Below the pieces are notes generated by a model that worked only from the letters and a program-made list of their open reading frames with translations, searched no databases and was not told the DNA's origin. Both the position numbers and the translations under genes were made by a program. A stretch of 41,465 nucleotides of DNA from a virus (lineage: Duplodnaviria > Heunggongvirae > Uroviricota > Caudoviricetes), in IMG/VR virus record IMGVR_UViG_2917881069_000006. The stretch is one strand, 5' to 3'. Shown here one piece after another: positions 1,662 through 41,465 of the stretch (position 1 is the first letter of the stretch; each line of letters opens with the position of its first letter).

Positions 1662-3738
1662 TCTACTGATTCCCCCATTTGTGCATCAGTTAACGCTTTA
1701 TGCCAAATCCTGAAATTTCGGATGTGTCCGAATATATGACGCTCACCAGTACTGGTTTGCCCACCAAATCTTATCGTAGCAGTTGGTGCTACATGAATAT
1801 AATCTGTCCTTGCAGACGATGAAAAAACAGAATTGCAAAACGCTTGAGTATCTCCATTTTCTTTACACCTAAATCCAGAGATAAACTTTCGATTTGTTGT
1901 TTTTACATACTTATTAATTCTTGTAGCGCCATCACCCATATCAACATAGGGCGATCCAGTATCAACCGCAGTCCCACCACGTAGACCATAAATTATGGCC
2001 TGCCCCGCTTTTTGACCAGTAAAATCCATTATTCTAGGTGCGGCATTTGGCGGAGAATCCCATTCCCAATTAAGATTGGTTTCGCACATTACAGTAAGCG
2101 GTAAATTGTAGATGTTGTTTTTGATTGGGATCGTAACTAAGTCACTCGCTCTTGTCGTTGTCGCAGATCCAGAAATAATAAAAGAAGAAGCACTGCTACC
2201 AACTTCAAATTGCGGTGTCGTTATCATCCACTGATCACCAATCTGTATATCTCGTTTATGCGCACCAACTTCAATTCGACCATAAAATGTTTTGTCTTCT
2301 GCGGTTTTATAAGTCAAAGATACAAACAACCATCCATTGGATTCAATTTTAGTATATACTTTCGTCGAGCTTCCGCCTGCAGGAGTTCCTAAAACTTCGC
2401 CCGTTTCCGCATTTATATAGGCATTCGAAGAAAGAGTATTACTAGAGCCATCCTCATTTACATAAGCAATCCTCGGATATACTGTCAGAATCCCATCACC
2501 AGCAACTTTTTTAACTCGGAAGGATATTGTAAGTGATTCCCCTGCCTTTGCTGGCATGGATCTTGGATATCCAGTTGAAATAAATGTAGCGCGTCCGGTA
2601 GTGCTTGTTTCGGCTGCAACATTAATAAGACCATAGGTAAAACCAAATTCATCTTTACCATTGGTTATATTCAATTGTGCGGCTTTATTCCATAACGACG
2701 GATTATTAGAATCTGCAAATGAATTGCTTCGTTGTCCTTCAATCAGTAAACCATCTTTTTCAAATCGTGGTTCGTCGATTGCTGCAATTTTCAGTTCCCC
2801 GGATTTATTGATATATGTAGCAGTTGATGCACGTTTAAACTTAACAATCTTGTCGCCAGGCATCGTTATTTCATCGTCACCAATAACAATCTTTTTATAT
2901 GATGGCGAAAAGCCCGTAATCATATCCAGCGAATCATTAAACGGAATCCAGACATCAGGCAACGGCGGAACTATATTCACATATGGTTTTACAGTCACTT
3001 CCGCTGCCGCTTCTGCGCGGTCTGCCGCCGCTTCCGAACGTGTCGCCGCCGCGACGGCTTCATCCTTTTTCTGCCCGGCCTTTGTTGCGTCTGCTGCGGC
3101 CTCCTGCGCTTTTGTGGTGGCGATTCCGGCATTTTCAGCGGCTGACTCTGCATTACGGCGGGAAGCCTCTTCACTGTTTGCGGAGGCTTCTTCTGACGCT
3201 CGGGCATTTGTCTCTGAACGTTCTGCTGCTGTTGCTGCGTTTTGTGCGGCTGTTTTTGAAGAGGCTGCCGCTTTCGCGCTGTTACCTGCATTCGTCTCTG
3301 ACGTTTTCGCCGCGTTCTTCGATGATTCCGCTGCAGTTTCGGATTTCTTTGCCGCCGCTGCGCTCTGAGAGGCAGCTTCAGCGTTTCGTGCCGTTTCTTC
3401 CAATATTTCCTCAAAACGGCGCAATGCCTCAGGCATGACATCATCTTCCGTCATGGCACCGAGAAAATCATTCAGCGTACCTGGTCTGGAACCTTCATAG
3501 ACGGTAATGATCCCGGCATGTGAAGGCGGAAAACCTTCAACCAGCAGGGTGACGCTGTACTGGCCATACTCAACATCCATGCTGTACGCCCGGCTTCATC
3601 CGGATTTTCAGAGGCTACCGTGTTCACCAGTACCGTGGTGCTGTTACGCTTTGCCTTCAGTTGAATAGTGCAGTTCTGTATTGGTTTTCCCGCACCATCT
3701 TTCAGCACACCTGAGATTTTTACTGCTGCCATATCCAC
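1658..3738 (-). pseudogene. stf: side tail fiber protein Stf, N-terminal 50 codons out of frame with the body
   Basis: N-terminal fragment MAAVKISGVLKDGAGKPIQNCTIQLKAKRNSTTVLVNTVASENPDEAGR matches the lambda Stf N-terminus, then changes frame near 3584-3588; the body (640-aa ORF from MDVEYGQYSV...) carries the Ala/Ser/Glu-rich KSETAAESSKNAAKTSE repeats typical of Stf and a divergent C-terminal receptor-binding region. Confidence 0.6.
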
Positions 3739-4463: not shown

Positions 4464-7400
4464 TCAACTGATACTGATACCGGCGGTTGATTTCTTCATC
4501 ACGACAACCAGCAAATCGCTGATGCTTGCGGTGGGATAATATTTTCCATTTGAAGCTGAAACTGAAAACTCCAGAGTTATCCCTCCATAACCTGCTGGCA
4601 TATCCATGATGCCTGTGTAAATGGCTGTAACATCGGTGGTCGAGTTATCATAAATTACAGTGCCATTCTTTTTTACAATAAGGCGACAGGATGAATAGTA
4701 TTCACTGTTTGTGGATGCCTGCCGGTGCTTCGCCCCACAAAACGCGACAGCAGGAATAACAATTTGCCGGTCAAAAGGTTGATCGTCATAAATCCTGACG
4801 GTAATGGTCCCTGATGGCCAGCGTTCCGGTGCTCGGGGATCTCGCGGGAAAGCCTTACCTACCGTTTTAACAATATCGCCTTCAATCTGGTTGGCAGACA
4901 GTTTTCCCAGAATCCGACAGTTCTCGTTAATCGTGACATTATTGAGCGTCCCGGAGTTCGCATTCACGTTACCGCTGATATCGGCATTTTTCGCCGTCAG
5001 CCGCCCGTCCGGTGTCAGGGAAAATACCGGCGGATTGCCGCCGCTGGTAATGGTGGGAGCCGTCAGATACTTCAGGAACACTTCGTTCATGAATATCTGG
5101 TTGCCCTGCGCCACAAACATCGGCGTTTCATTCCCGTTTGCCGGGTCAATAAACGCGATACGGTTAGCGGCAACCAGGAACTGGCTCAGTTTACCTTCCT
5201 CCGTATCCTCCATGCTGAGGCCAAGCCCCGCGACATAATGCCTGCCGTCTTCGGTCTGCTCAATTTTGACGCCCCACATGGCATTCCATTTATCGTTGGC
5301 GTCTTTCCACTCTTTCGAAAACTCCTCCAGTTTGCTGGCGTTATCCTCCGTCAGCTCGACTTTTTCCAGCAGCTCCTTGCCGAGATGGGATTCGGTTATT
5401 TGGCCTTTGAAAAAATCCAGGTAACCTTCCGCATCATCGCTCGCCCGACCGACAGCTTCCACGAATGCCGATTTGCCAACGGTGTTCACACTGCGAACGT
5501 AAAAATAATAATCATGGCCCGGTTTGATATTGATACTGGCGGCTATCCAGTACAGCGCCGTGCCAAGATAGCGGGCTGTGGTTTCAACCTGCCTGATATC
5601 CGCAATCCGCTTTTCCGAGAACCAGAACTCAAACTGTACCGTCTGGTCATAAACGGCAAGATGCGGCGTTGCGGTTATCTGAAAATAGCCCGGCGTCAGC
5701 TCAATCCGCGACGGTGCTGCCGGTGCGGCAATCCGGAACGATACCGACGCCGGATCGCCCTGCTGCCCCCAGGCATTTACCGCCCGGACTGTCAGCCTGT
5801 AGTTTCCCAGCGCCAGTTGCGTGAAGCGGTATGTGGTTTCCGTCGTCCGGGCCGTGCTGACCAGCCGCTCACTGCCGTCATCCGCTGCCACGGTCAGGCG
5901 AAGCATAAAGCTCACACCCTTCACCACCTTCGGCGTGTCCCATCGCGCCAGTACCTGATATTCCCCGCTGTCTGCGGTGACTTCGGCAGTCAGGTGCTGC
6001 ACCGCTGGCGGCGTGACACCATTCACCGTGCCGCTCTGGTCGCCGTCAAAGTGCGCCCCGTTATCCACGATGGCTTCTTTTTCCGGTACATGCTGCACGG
6101 CGGTGATGGCATACGTGCCGTCATCGTTCTCACGGATACTCACACAGCGGAACAGGCGCTGACGCAGCGTCGGCAGCTTCAGCCCCCACACGCTGTATTC
6201 GGCAACGCCGTCAGGAACACGGCTCACTTTTACCTTCACGCCGTCGGTGACGGACTGGACCTCCACGCTGACCGGATTGCCATTTCCGTCTACCAGGCTT
6301 ATCAGCGTGGTGCCGGAGGATGGCAGCATGATTTCACGGTCGAGCGTCAGTGTCCGCGTCTGGCTGTTCACCGCCAGCACGCGCCCGCCGATGCTGATCC
6401 CCGCATAGTCATCATCACAGATTTCAATGACATCACCCGGTACATGGCGAAGCCCTTCTGCACCCACGCTGAAGTCCACGGTCTGCGTTTCCAGCAATTC
6501 CGTTTTAATCAGCCACAGCCCGGCGCGGTGCGCCTGCCCCCGGCTGGTACAGCCAAAGGCATCCATCTTCGTGACGTTACGACCGTAACGGGCAATGGCC
6601 TGCGTGTCCTCCACAAGCTCTGTTGCCGTTTCCCAGCCGTTATTCGGGTCAATCCAGTTCACCTCAACGGCATTATGGCGGTCCTTCAGGGCGCTGAAAC
6701 TGTAGCGGAACGGCGCGCCATCATCCGGCATCACCACATTACTGCGGTTATAGGTCCACACCTTATCCGACGGTCGGTCCTGCACGAACGTCAGCGTCTG
6801 CCCGTTCCATACCGGCATACAGCGCATCGCCGAGCAGAAATCACTGAGAACATCCCACGCCTTACGCTGTGTGGTCAGGTAGGCATTACAGGTGATGCGC
6901 GGCTCCGTGCCACCAAAGCCATCCGGCACCGACTGGTCGCAATTCTGGCCGATGACATACAGCGCCCATTTGTCCACATCCGCCGCACCGAGACGCTTCC
7001 CCATGCCGTAGCGCGGATGGGTCAGCATATCCCACAGACACCAGGCCATGTTGTTGCTGTATGCCGGTTTAAACGTCCCGTCCCAGATACCGCTGTATTG
7101 CCGCGTCTGCGGGTTATAGTTCGACGGCACCTGCAGAATGCGCCCGCGCAGATGATAATTACGGCTCACCTGCTGGCTGCCGAACTGCTCCGAATCCATC
7201 TGCACGCCGACCAGTGCCGTGTTCGGGTAGCACTGTTTCACATCGATGATTTCGGTGTATGACGACCAGAGTGTTTTGTTCTGCAGCTGGTCTGTGGTGC
7301 TGTCCGGCGTCATCCTGCGCATCCGGATATTGAACGGGCGCGGCGGCAGGTTATCCACCACCACCGAGGCCAGATACTGCGAGGTGGTTTTGCCCTTAAT

Positions 7401-9939: not shown

Positions 9940-10268
9940 CAGTTCACCACCTGTTTAAACTCTGCGCTGAACTCAACACGCAACATACTGACCCGCGACG
10001 TCCATTTTGCGCAGGTCACCTTTATCTGCCGCCAGTCATAAGGCGGCGTCCACAGAAAGGCTTTCCAGCCTCCGTGCTCTGCCAGAAACGATTCCAGCGC
10101 CGTGGCCTCCCAACGGGGGACAGAAATCGTCACGCTGTACGTTTTCAGGTTGGCATTCAGCCCGGCAGGCGCGCGCTGGGAGTAACCATCACCAAAGCGC
10201 ACCTCCCTGACGGAAGGAGCCGAAGCCACATCCATACCCGGTTTCACTTTCCAGCGGAAGGTTTTCAT
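9939..10268 (-). CDS. M: tail tip protein M
   Basis: 109 aa, same length and position as lambda M. Confidence 0.9.
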   Translation of the reverse strand: MKTFRWKVKPGMDVASAPSVREVRFGDGYSQRAPAGLNANLKTYSVTISVPRWEATALESFLAEHGGWKAFLWTPPYDWRQIKVTCAKWTSRVSMLRVEFSAEFKQVVN

Positions 10269-12826
10269 CGCCCACCTCCGGAGAACAGACCACCATCACG
10301 CATCTGCCCGGTCACGACATCCATTGCCGCCTTACGGGCTACGTCATAAACCGCCTTCAGCGCCTGTGGCCCTATCTGACCGTTCGTGCCGTCGTTATTA
10401 ATCACCACATGGTTATTCTGCTCAAACTTCCCGGACGCCTGCGACCGGCTGTCCGCCAGACTGCCCGGTGTACCGACATAACCACCGGTGGCATAGCCGC
10501 GCATCAGCCGGTAGAGATTCCCCACGCCAATCCGGCTGGTTGCCTCCTTCGTGAAGACAAATTCACCACGGTGAACAATCCCGGCAGGCTCATATTTGCC
10601 ACCGGTTCCCGTAAAACCTCCGGTCGCAAAATGGAATTTCGCCGCAGCAGCCTGAATGGCTGTACCGCCTGACGCTGATGCGCCGCCACCAACAGCTCCG
10701 CCAATGGCGCTGCCGATACTCCCGACAATCCCCACCGTTGCCTGCTTAAGCAGAATTTCTGTCATCATGGACAGCACGGAACGGGTGAAACTGCGCCAGT
10801 TCTGCTCACTGCCGGTCAGCATCGCCGCCATATTCTGCGCAATACCATCAAAGGTCTGCGTGGCAGCACTTTTAACCTGCGACATACTGTCCGTGGCACT
10901 CTCTTTCCACTCGCTCCAGCCGGACTTCAGGCCAGCCATCCAGCTCCCGTTAAGCTGGTCTTCAGCCGCCCAGGTCTTTTTTCTGCTCTGACATGACGTT
11001 ATTCAGCGCCAGCGAATTATCGCCATACTGTTCCTTCAGGCGCTGTTCTGTGGCTTCCCGCGCTGCCTGCCGGTCAGTAAGCCCCCGTTTTTCGCATCAA
11101 TGGCTGTCCGTTTTGCCCGTTGTTGCTGTGCGAACTTATCCGCCTGCTGCGCCAGCGCATTCAGGTGCTCCTGATACGTGACCTTATCGCCAAGTGCAGC
11201 CAGCTGGCGTTTGTACTCCAGCGTCTCATCTTTATGCGCCAGCAGGGATTTCTCCTGTGCGGACAGCTGGCGACGTTGTGCCGCCTCCTCCAGTACCGCG
11301 AACTGATTTTCCGCCTTCCATAAATCCCGGCGCTGCTGGCTGATTTTCTCATTCGCTCCGGCATGCTTCTCCAGCGTCCGGAGTTCTGCCTGAAGCGTCA
11401 GCAGGGCCGCATGAGCACTGTCTTCCTGACGATCGCCCGCAGACACCTTCACGCCGGACTGTTTCGGCTTTTTCAGCGTCGCTTCATAATCCTTTTTCGC
11501 CGCCGCCATCAGCGTGTTGTAATCTGCCTGCAGGATTTTCCCGTCTTTCAGTGCCTTGTTCAGTTCTTCCTGACGGGCGGTATATTTCTCCAGCGGCGTC
11601 TGCAGCCGTTCGTAAGCCTTCTGCGCCTCTTCGGTATATTTCAGCCGTGACGCTTCGGTATCGCTCTGCTGCTGCGCATTTTTGTCCTGTTGACTCTGCT
11701 GTTCAGCCTTCTTTCTGGCGGCTTCAAGCGCAAGACGGGCCTTTTCACGATCATCCCAGTAACGCGACCGCGCTTCATCGTTAACAAAATAATCATCCTT
11801 GCGCAGATTCCAGATGTCGTCTGCTTTCTTAAACGCAGCCTCTGCCTTAATCAGCATCTCCTGAGCGGTATCAGGACGACCAATATCCAGCACCGCATCC
11901 CACATGGATTTGAATGCCCGTGCTGTCCTGTCTGCCCAGGTTTCCAGCGTGCCCATGTTCTCTTTCAGGCGTCGGGTCTGGTCATCAAACCCTTTCGTTG
12001 CGGCCTCGTTCGCCGCCTGCAATGCCCCGGCTTCATCGCCGGAACGCTGCAACTGAGCAACATACGCAATCTGCTCCGCCGTCACGTTATGGAACTGGCG
12101 CGCCATCGCCGTCAGCCCCGACGTCGGGTCAGTGGTCAGCTTCCCGAAGGCTTCAGCAACCTTGTCCACCTCCACGCCGGATGCAGAGGAGAAACGCGCC
12201 ACACTCTGGCTGATGGACGCAATCTGAGCCTCACCGCTTACCCCCGCCTTAACCAGTGCACTGAGTGACTCGCTGGTCTGGTTAAACGTCAGCCCTGCCG
12301 CCTGCCCGGCTCTGGACAGGACCAGCATACGATCTGCCGTCAGACCTGACTGATGACCGGAAAGGACCAGCGTTTTGTTGAACTCAGACAGGGTTGAGTT
12401 GCCCTGATACCAGGCATACGCCAGCGCACCGGTCGCCACTGCCAGCGAGGTGGCCCCGACCATCGGCAGGGTGATCGCACCGGCAAGCCCCCTGAACATG
12501 GGGATCATCCCGCCGAAGGAGTCCTTAACCTGACCACCCTGTTGCAGCAGGATCAGCCACGGACTTTGCCCGCCTGCAAGCTGCGTGGCCACGTCGGTGA
12601 ACTGTGCAGGAAGCATACGCATGGCGGCTTTATACTGTCCGACGGAAATCCCCGCTTTCTGTGCAGCCAGCGCCTGCCGGTTCATCGACTGTTCAACGAC
12701 TGCCGCTGTTTTTTTCGCATCACTTTCCGTACCGGAAAAATGACGCCTGACTCTGGCCATCTGCTCGTCAAATCTGGCCGCATCCAGACTTAAATCAACG
12801 ACCAGATCGCCTACCGGTTCAGCCAT
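10265..12826 (-). pseudogene. H: tail tape measure protein H, reading frame interrupted by two compensating single-base indels
   Basis: Total span 2562 nt equals an 853-codon gene, but the frame from ATG 12826 hits TGA at 11036-11038. The middle frame is open only between two homopolymers (plus-strand C5T5 at 11082-11092 and T6 at 10977-10982) and reads RGLTDRQAAREATEQRLKEQYGDNSLALNNVMSEQ; the original frame resumes as KKTWAAEDQL...MAGLKSGW to the C-terminus. Confidence 0.75.
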
Positions 12827-35289: not shown

Positions 35290-35370
35290 AATTGATTCCT
35301 TTAGTTTGAATTGACTGTTAATCAGTCTGTTAAGTTGATTGCTTATTGTTAAAGAGCGTGAAATGGAAAT

Positions 35371-39035: not shown

Positions 39036-39190
39036 CGCATCCTCACGATAATATCCGGGTAGGCGCGATCACTTTCGTCTACTCCGTTACAAAGCGAGGC
39101 TGGGTATTTCCCGGCCTTTCTGTTATCAGAAATCCACTGAAAGCACAGCGGCTGGCTGAGGAGATAAATAATAAACGGGGGGCTGTATGA
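39032..39190 (+). CDS. small ORF downstream of exo (lambda orf60a-like)
   Basis: 52 aa, [56 protein letters not shown] junction with exo stop and with the methylase start. Confidence 0.5.
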
Positions 39191-41022: not shown

Positions 41023-41465
41023 AAAAGCTAGGGGATTTACCTGATGTCACTTTTGAAGAGGCCTGCCTAAGATGGCTTGAGGAAAAAGCTGATAAAAAAT
41101 CTCTCGATTCAGATAAAAGCCGGATTGAGTTCTGGCTTGAACATTTTGAGGGTATAAGGCTTAAAGATATCTCGGAGGCAAAGATTTACTCTGCTGTAAG
41201 CAGAATGCATAACAGAAAGACGAAAGAAATATGGAAACAGAAAGTTCAGGCCGCCATCAGGAAAGGTAAAGAACCGCCTGTTTATGAACCAAAGCCAGTA
41301 TCAACTCAGACAAAGGCAAAGCATCTTGCCATGATAAAGGCCATTCTCCGTGCTGCAGAACGCGACTGGAAGTGGCTGGAAAAAGCGCCTGTCATCAAGA
41401 TACCAGCGGTCAGAAACAAGCGAGTCAGATGGCTGGAAAAGGAGGAAGCAAAAACGCCTTATTGA
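40878..41465 (+). pseudogene. int: tyrosine integrase, N-terminal 195 codons only (reading frame ends in TGA at the window edge)
   Basis: [69 protein letters not shown]... is the N-terminal arm-binding/core-binding part of a lambdoid integrase (Rac IntR-like from memory); stop at 41463-41465; catalytic domain with R-K-H-R-H-Y residues not present. Confidence 0.7.

Follow-up and report, generated by a model that had tools for sequence, protein, structure and literature searches.

Two one-base indels split a lambda-type tape measure gene in a prophage of Escherichia cryptic clade II strain E2661 and are probably sequencing errors

The window, as the whole stretch of DNA analysed here is called, comprises 41,465 nucleotides and corresponds to positions 138029-179493 of contig PDIG01000005.1 in the assembly GCA_004745185.1, which represents Escherichia cryptic clade II strain E2661. 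The exact J protein of the window is on record on this one contig only. The minus strand of the window carries a row of tail genes in lambda-like order, namely V, G, T, H, M, L, K, I, J, lom, and stf. The tape measure gene H occupies its usual place in this row, 3' of the G/T chaperone genes with their slippery heptamer and 5' of the genes M-L-K-I-J. The canonical heptamer for the -1 programmed frameshift of G/GT, GGGAAAG, is located at 13259-13253 on the minus strand, within the G/T overlap and just upstream of H. The gene itself, the pieces into which the deposited sequence divides it, and the two sites at which it departs from its homologues are as follows.

10265-12826, minus strand: full span of H, a lambda-type tape measure gene, 2562 nt, as long as its intact 853-codon homologues
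11036-12826, minus strand: 5' fragment of H as deposited, a 596-residue open reading frame ended by TGA at 11038-11036
10983-11081, minus strand: segment of H between the two indels, open in the ancestral frame only, 34 of 37 residues matching intact homologues
10265-10939, minus strand: 3' fragment of H, a 224-residue open reading frame in which the start frame is regained, with the lambda tape measure C-terminal domain
11082-11092: site 1, plus-strand CCCCC-G-TTTTT, coding AAAAA-C-GGGGG, one base short relative to intact homologues according to alignments and blastn gap lists
10977-10982: site 2, plus-strand T6, coding A6, one base too many, with A5 in all intact homologues

Frame translation of the window bears out the extent that an earlier note on this DNA had given for H: the span from 12826 to 10265 on the minus strand begins with ATG, ends with TGA, and measures exactly 2562 nt. 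The start frame, as that note also stated, stops at 11036-11038 after 596 residues. The note further described the start frame as open outside the two sites, which holds for the sequence as far as 10265 once the stops are passed; a second TGA in the start frame, at 11005-11003, has to be added to its account. The first ATG after these stops, at 10939, opens the frame of 224 residues. In other words, the deposited sequence does not contain one continuous open reading frame of about 853 codons.

Both pieces of the gene are nevertheless readily recognised. The 596-residue fragment contains the N-terminal domain, matching Pfam TMP_2 (PF06791) with E = 1.6e-69 over profile positions 2-207 of 208, and its final 17 residues (GGLLTGRQRGKPQNSA) are out-of-frame sequence. 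The 224-residue fragment matches Pfam Tape_meas_lam_C (PF09718) from its residue 1 onwards, with E = 6.2e-20 over profile positions 4-75 of 76. Between the two sites, the sole open frame encodes GLTDRQAAREATEQRLKEQYGDNSLALNNVMSEQKK, in which 34 of 37 residues are those of intact tape measure proteins, and the claim that this frame yields a sensible tape-measure segment is thereby upheld. When one C is added and one A is removed in silico, an open reading frame of 853 residues results. This repaired protein shows 98% identity at 100% coverage to a tape measure protein cluster of 26,172 members, while in DNA the gene is 96-97% identical to its intact counterparts in phages PhiR46_1, 434, and DE3. 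By its sequence, the gene is an ordinary tape measure gene of the lambda gpH type.

The two indels were defined against a panel of intact H genes from phages PhiR46_1, 434, and DE3 and from E. coli DEC5B and NMBU-W13E19. On the plus strand, site 1 consists of a C5 run (11082-11086), a single G (11087), and a T5 run (11088-11092); the earlier note located this site correctly but took the tract for C5T5 rather than C5-G-T5, whereas its T6 at 10977-10982 stands as described. The deposited allele of site 1 reads AAAAACGGGGG, and intact homologues have AAAAACCGGGGG, AAAAGCCGGGGG, or AAAAAACGGGGG. Compared with them, exactly one base is gone, which on the coding strand can be written AAAAA[C]CGGGGG. 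The contig coordinates are 149110-149120 for site 1 and 149005-149010 for site 2. By alignment, the two sites are about 104 nt apart, in line with the roughly 100 nt reported before, and each lesion adds or removes one base within a run of five identical bases or between two such runs. Their description as compensating is true only of the total length, which cancels. The TGA at 11036 sits in the shifted frame of every aligned homologue, so the pair of indels was never able to rescue an open frame, and their zero net length is a coincidence.

In nearly all homologues examined, H is one open reading frame of about 853 residues, with CC (or an equivalent) at the first site and A5 at the second. 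The only exceptions are two assemblies, IMGVR_UViG_2617271072_000003 and GCA_900449925.1, both of which are fragmented in several genes. The former, an unrelated viral contig, also has A6 in place of A5 in H (positions 6223-6252), without the upstream deletion, with Z and the 3' part of H also broken in frame; the A5 tract of H seems to cause repeated trouble, either in sequencing or through slippage. In the latter, an E. coli assembly (contig UGEM01000004.1), the lambda-like tail module is split into many short open reading frames, with H in four pieces, which suggests an assembly rich in errors and not a biological state. Recurrence of the same lesion in independently sequenced relatives, which would be a mark of a pseudogene, was not found, A6 alone being present in one unrelated contig.

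A scan for the exact pattern of the site 1 deletion allele gave 0 matches in the genome, metagenome, and viral collections. Among the 5,426 complete genomes of E. coli and the 50,697 records of phages searched, none has a copy identical to the H of the window; the best matches reach 96-97% identity and are all intact. Exact look-up in a collection of 15 billion proteins returned neither the 596- and 224-residue fragments, nor the repaired protein (two variants), nor a protein repaired at site 1 only (two variants). This absence speaks neither for nor against the two indels. The K and L proteins adjoining H are recorded, in their exact form, from the GenBank contig alone, so that no second assembly of E2661 with complete flanking genes is on record.

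The closest local allele of H is found in the viral contig IMGVR_UViG_2623620496_000002, which differs by one SNP in about 210 nt and in which AAAAACCGGGGG and A5 are accompanied by an intact 853-residue H. As run lengths that would restore a single frame of 853 codons, the earlier note had named CC or G6 at site 1 and A5 at site 2; CC and A5 are what this allele carries, but G6 was not seen. Substitutions private to the window in the first panel are clustered near the H indels, and a low-quality or chimeric patch was considered on account of this cluster. That explanation was rejected, since IMGVR_UViG_2623620496_000002 has the same allele in intact form. Moreover, this contig shares the patch contiguous with intact flanks, and upstream of site 1 the allele stays the same over about 100 nt. 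The patch is a natural mosaic allele, of which two run lengths only are specific to the window.

A miscalled homopolymer length is the characteristic error of Ion Torrent sequencing. Strain E2661 (PDIG00000000) was isolated from Hong Kong intertidal sediment, and its reads (SRX3260346) are Ion Torrent only, single-end and 35-400 nt long, with a coverage of 40x that is the lowest in the table of that study (PMC6639607). The reads were assembled with MIRA and SPAdes and gaps were closed manually; no other read type is mentioned, and the only further data are optical maps, which served for scaffolding (PMC6639607). The E2661 sequence is, in effect, built from flow-based reads without polishing by another technology. 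In a comparison of Illumina and Ion Torrent data from the same isolates, the runs in which single-base indels occurred had a mean length of 5.5 and adenine was the base affected most, and Ion Torrent genomes are over-represented among those excluded from RefSeq for 'many frameshifted proteins' (PMC12046094). In the GenBank record of PDIG01000005.1, no gene is called over H, stf, or int, which fits their annotation as pseudogenes.

Frame breaks on this contig are not confined to H. Altogether, PDIG01000005.1 contains nine frame-breaking one-base indels in 57.65 kb, three in host genes, four in phage genes other than H, and two in H itself. Those outside H are given below, with positions in the flanks of the window counted in the flanking stretches L010 and L032.

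3580-3732, minus strand: stf (side tail fibre), one-base deletion after 3586, plus-strand AA to A, near codon 50
About 27718: ylcG, G4 to G3, frame switch, with the homologous frame resuming beyond the indel
About 29974: ybcK-like recombinase gene, T4 to T5, frame switch, with the homologous frame resuming beyond the indel
41450: int, A4 to A5, frame switch, with the homologous frame resuming beyond the indel
L010 22156, flank of the window: ybcH, host gene, A6 to A7, frameshift
L032 17797, flank of the window: ppiB, conserved housekeeping gene of the host, CC to C, frameshift
L032 19533, flank of the window: purK, conserved housekeeping gene of the host, one extra C, frameshift

In stf, one frame encodes the first 49 residues, with 100% identity to homologues, and the remainder follows in another, while the match to Pfam phage_tail_N begins at profile position 51; this deletion probably belongs to the same class of artefact. 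In the three host genes ybcH, ppiB, and purK, amino-acid identity is 92-100% before as well as after the shift. In contig coordinates, the lesions fall at 141614 in stf, 179478 in int, about 184179 in ppiB, and about 185915 in purK. The same class of lesion is therefore present in conserved genes of the same assembly (ppiB, purK, ybcH, and int), and because these are broken in a like manner, frameshifts in this assembly are weak evidence of inactivation. Within the 18 kb of structural genes, which align at 97% to PhiR46_1, no single-base indel other than the two of H breaks a coding frame. An initial view that the assembly was clean, with only H broken in these 18 kb, was dropped after the early region and the host flanks showed more breaks. 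Nonsense mutations, insertion sequences, and large deletions were not seen in the phage genes compared, and the structural and early genes among them have their full length except for the one-base indels.

An independent assembly from raw reads is provided by the Logan contigs of run SRR6148326. These contigs encode proteins otherwise found only in E2661, and one of them is 100% identical to positions 1119-2906 of the window; from this we infer that the run represents E2661 itself and not a clonal sister strain. Contig SRR6148326_83 aligns with the GenBank contig over 9.67 kb with 0 mismatches and 4 single-base indels, the H sites being outside this stretch. At window position 41450, it restores an intact integrase of 387 residues, whereas at a disagreement in DUF4222 it is the GenBank version that is intact. 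Since each of the two assemblies is intact at different sites, the underlying reads appear to be ambiguous in run length. A further candidate lesion, in DUF1317 (G5 to G6 at 39177), was set aside, as the Logan assembly and several other genomes share the 52-residue form.

Selection on the repaired H was estimated against five intact homologues. Before the premature stop, the ratio dN/dS is 0.06-0.11, and after it 0.07-0.17; nothing in these values suggests that the downstream part of the gene is drifting as dead sequence. Relaxed constraint and other types of lesion, which would characterise a decaying prophage, were found neither in H nor in the phage genes compared.

The proximity of the two indels can be set against chance. 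At nine lesions per 57.65 kb, 0.4 would be expected in H, and the probability of at least two in this gene is 6%. For six lesions in the 41-kb window, the probability that some pair falls within 110 nt is 8% under uniform placement and 14% under weighting to longer runs, and the opposite signs of the pair, with their net-zero length, are a further 50:50 outcome. The pairing of the indels in H is a mild coincidence (6-14%) and not a signal.

Taken together, these findings make it quite likely that both indels of H are Ion Torrent consensus errors and that the true gene is intact. Miscalls of homopolymer length at both sites would have survived into the consensus of a low-coverage draft, and the real DNA of E2661 would carry AAAAACCGGGGG and A5 and encode an ordinary, intact lambda-type tape measure protein of 853 residues. 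The step that we infer here is that these two particular sites are miscalls; it draws on the platform, the contexts of the indels, the lesions in host genes, the disagreement of two assemblies in run length only, the intact allele elsewhere, and the purifying selection on the gene. Where the earlier note left a choice between a prophage unable to build tails and errors of assembly, the second is strongly favoured by the Ion Torrent draft, the indels in host genes, the disagreements in run length, and the intact allele. An unlikely alternative is that H is a genuine and very recent pseudogene, in which one or both indels arose by real slippage and the protein is truncated to 596 residues, leaving the prophage without tail assembly, for which gpH is essential. 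Homopolymers are true hotspots of slippage mutation, a one-base deletion is also present in the stf of this prophage, and the exact repaired, single-indel, and truncated products of H are alike absent from the 15-billion-protein collection. However, ppiB, purK, and ybcH in the host chromosome are broken by the same class of lesion, int is broken here but intact in the second assembly, constraint is not relaxed downstream of the stop in H, and the phage genes compared are free of nonsense mutations, insertion sequences, and deletions. The change from A5 to A6 in an unrelated contig may mean that this tract of H is prone to slippage, but that contig has other frame breaks and fits a hotspot of sequencing error. 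Similarly, it is a mild coincidence under consensus error (6-14%) that H alone is affected in the 18 kb of structural genes, and twice within 104 nt; two independent real lesions 104 nt apart, with the rest of the 18 kb untouched, would in their turn be improbable.

Local mis-assembly is a much more remote explanation, according to which reads from a second, paralogous lambdoid prophage were merged over H and left the indels at the edges of the patch. It is made conceivable by the E. coli genomes, in which the median copy number of this H segment is two, by an assembly that merged the output of two assemblers and was closed manually, and by the clustering of window-private substitutions of the first panel around the indels. 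Yet those substitutions form a natural allele, from which IMGVR_UViG_2623620496_000002 differs by two run lengths and one SNP, and the indels lie inside the shared allele, which extends without change about 100 nt beyond site 1 in the upstream direction. Mis-assembly driven by a paralogue would, moreover, be an artefact too, and the practical verdict is the same. Programmed recoding, in which ribosomes would shift at the first tract and back at the second to make full-length H from the deposited sequence, is effectively excluded. The two shifts cancel, they fall at slippery-looking homopolymers, and a -1 programmed frameshift does operate in the adjacent genes G/T (GGGAAAG, 13259-13253), but nearly all homologues have a single H reading frame, and neither the two-frame architecture nor the shift site is conserved. 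A double shift would require two efficient events in series, and recoding explains nothing beyond what consensus error explains.

Several further features of the prophage and its surroundings were recorded. Just outside window position 1, beyond the tail-fibre end of the prophage, L010 17917-19726 contains a gene for a 429-residue flagellin and a dinI homologue. These are followed by emrE, ybcH, and nfrA, and constitute an extra flagellin locus by the prophage at the argU/DLP12 site. At 35315-35326, between the ydaT-like and cro-like genes, the window has a 12-nt stretch, CTGTTAATCAGT, that is absent in the relative E. coli CB7453. This stretch resembles the adjoining CTGTTAAGT and may be a duplicated operator-like element. 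Another segment, of about 1.26 kb (25556-26814), extends from the holin gene to the Q antiterminator gene and contains no open reading frame of at least 90 residues and no tRNA; a tRNA scan of the window found none. The ompC/nmpC-like porin gene that is present at this location in relatives has no match in the window. The feature that bounds this segment is:

26814-27596: Q antiterminator gene, Pfam Antiterm

The likely presence of consensus errors in H has consequences for the use of this assembly. Apparent homopolymer pseudogenes in E2661, such as ppiB, purK, int, and H, should not be taken at face value, and the same caution probably applies to the 15 sister genomes (PDHW-PDIL) that were sequenced by Ion Torrent under this BioProject. 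The measured rate is roughly one false frameshift per 6 kb, and inferences from these drafts about prophage competence, pseudogene load, and gene loss in Escherichia cryptic clade II would be inflated. There is a small chance that at least one of the indels is real, in which case the E2661 prophage would just have lost H (perhaps stf as well) by homopolymer slippage, and the inactivation of a prophage would have been caught at its first step, before other decay. Even so, prophages with a frameshifted tail gene are common, and one more would carry little biological weight.

The closest known counterpart of the gene is gpH of phage lambda, with which the H of the window shares its length of 2562 nt and 853 codons, both Pfam domains (TMP_2 and Tape_meas_lam_C), and its position between G/T and M-L-K-I-J. 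Identity to the H of lambda-like phages is 95-97% in DNA, and the repaired protein shares 98% of its residues with intact homologues. In contrast to lambda gpH, the reading frame in the window is split into 596 and 224 residues by one missing and one extra base. In its errors, the E2661 assembly resembles Ion Torrent and 454 drafts with false frameshifts: it has the platform, the low coverage, the runs of about five bases, and the affected adenine in common with them, as well as many frameshifted conserved genes and a second assembly that disagrees in run length only. Unlike typical errors of these platforms, two of the nine lesions lie outside long runs, namely the single C inserted in purK and the change from AA to A in stf.

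A different kind of precedent is offered by stf of lambda PaPa, a genuine and experimentally verified frameshift of a laboratory strain, which splits the gene into orf401 and orf314 and leaves the phage viable. As in the H of the window, a one-base frameshift affects a tail gene of lambda type and both halves can still be recognised, and the stf of the window likewise has a one-base deletion, near codon 50. Unlike the frameshift of lambda PaPa, the lesions in the H of the window are located in an error-prone assembly and in an essential gene.
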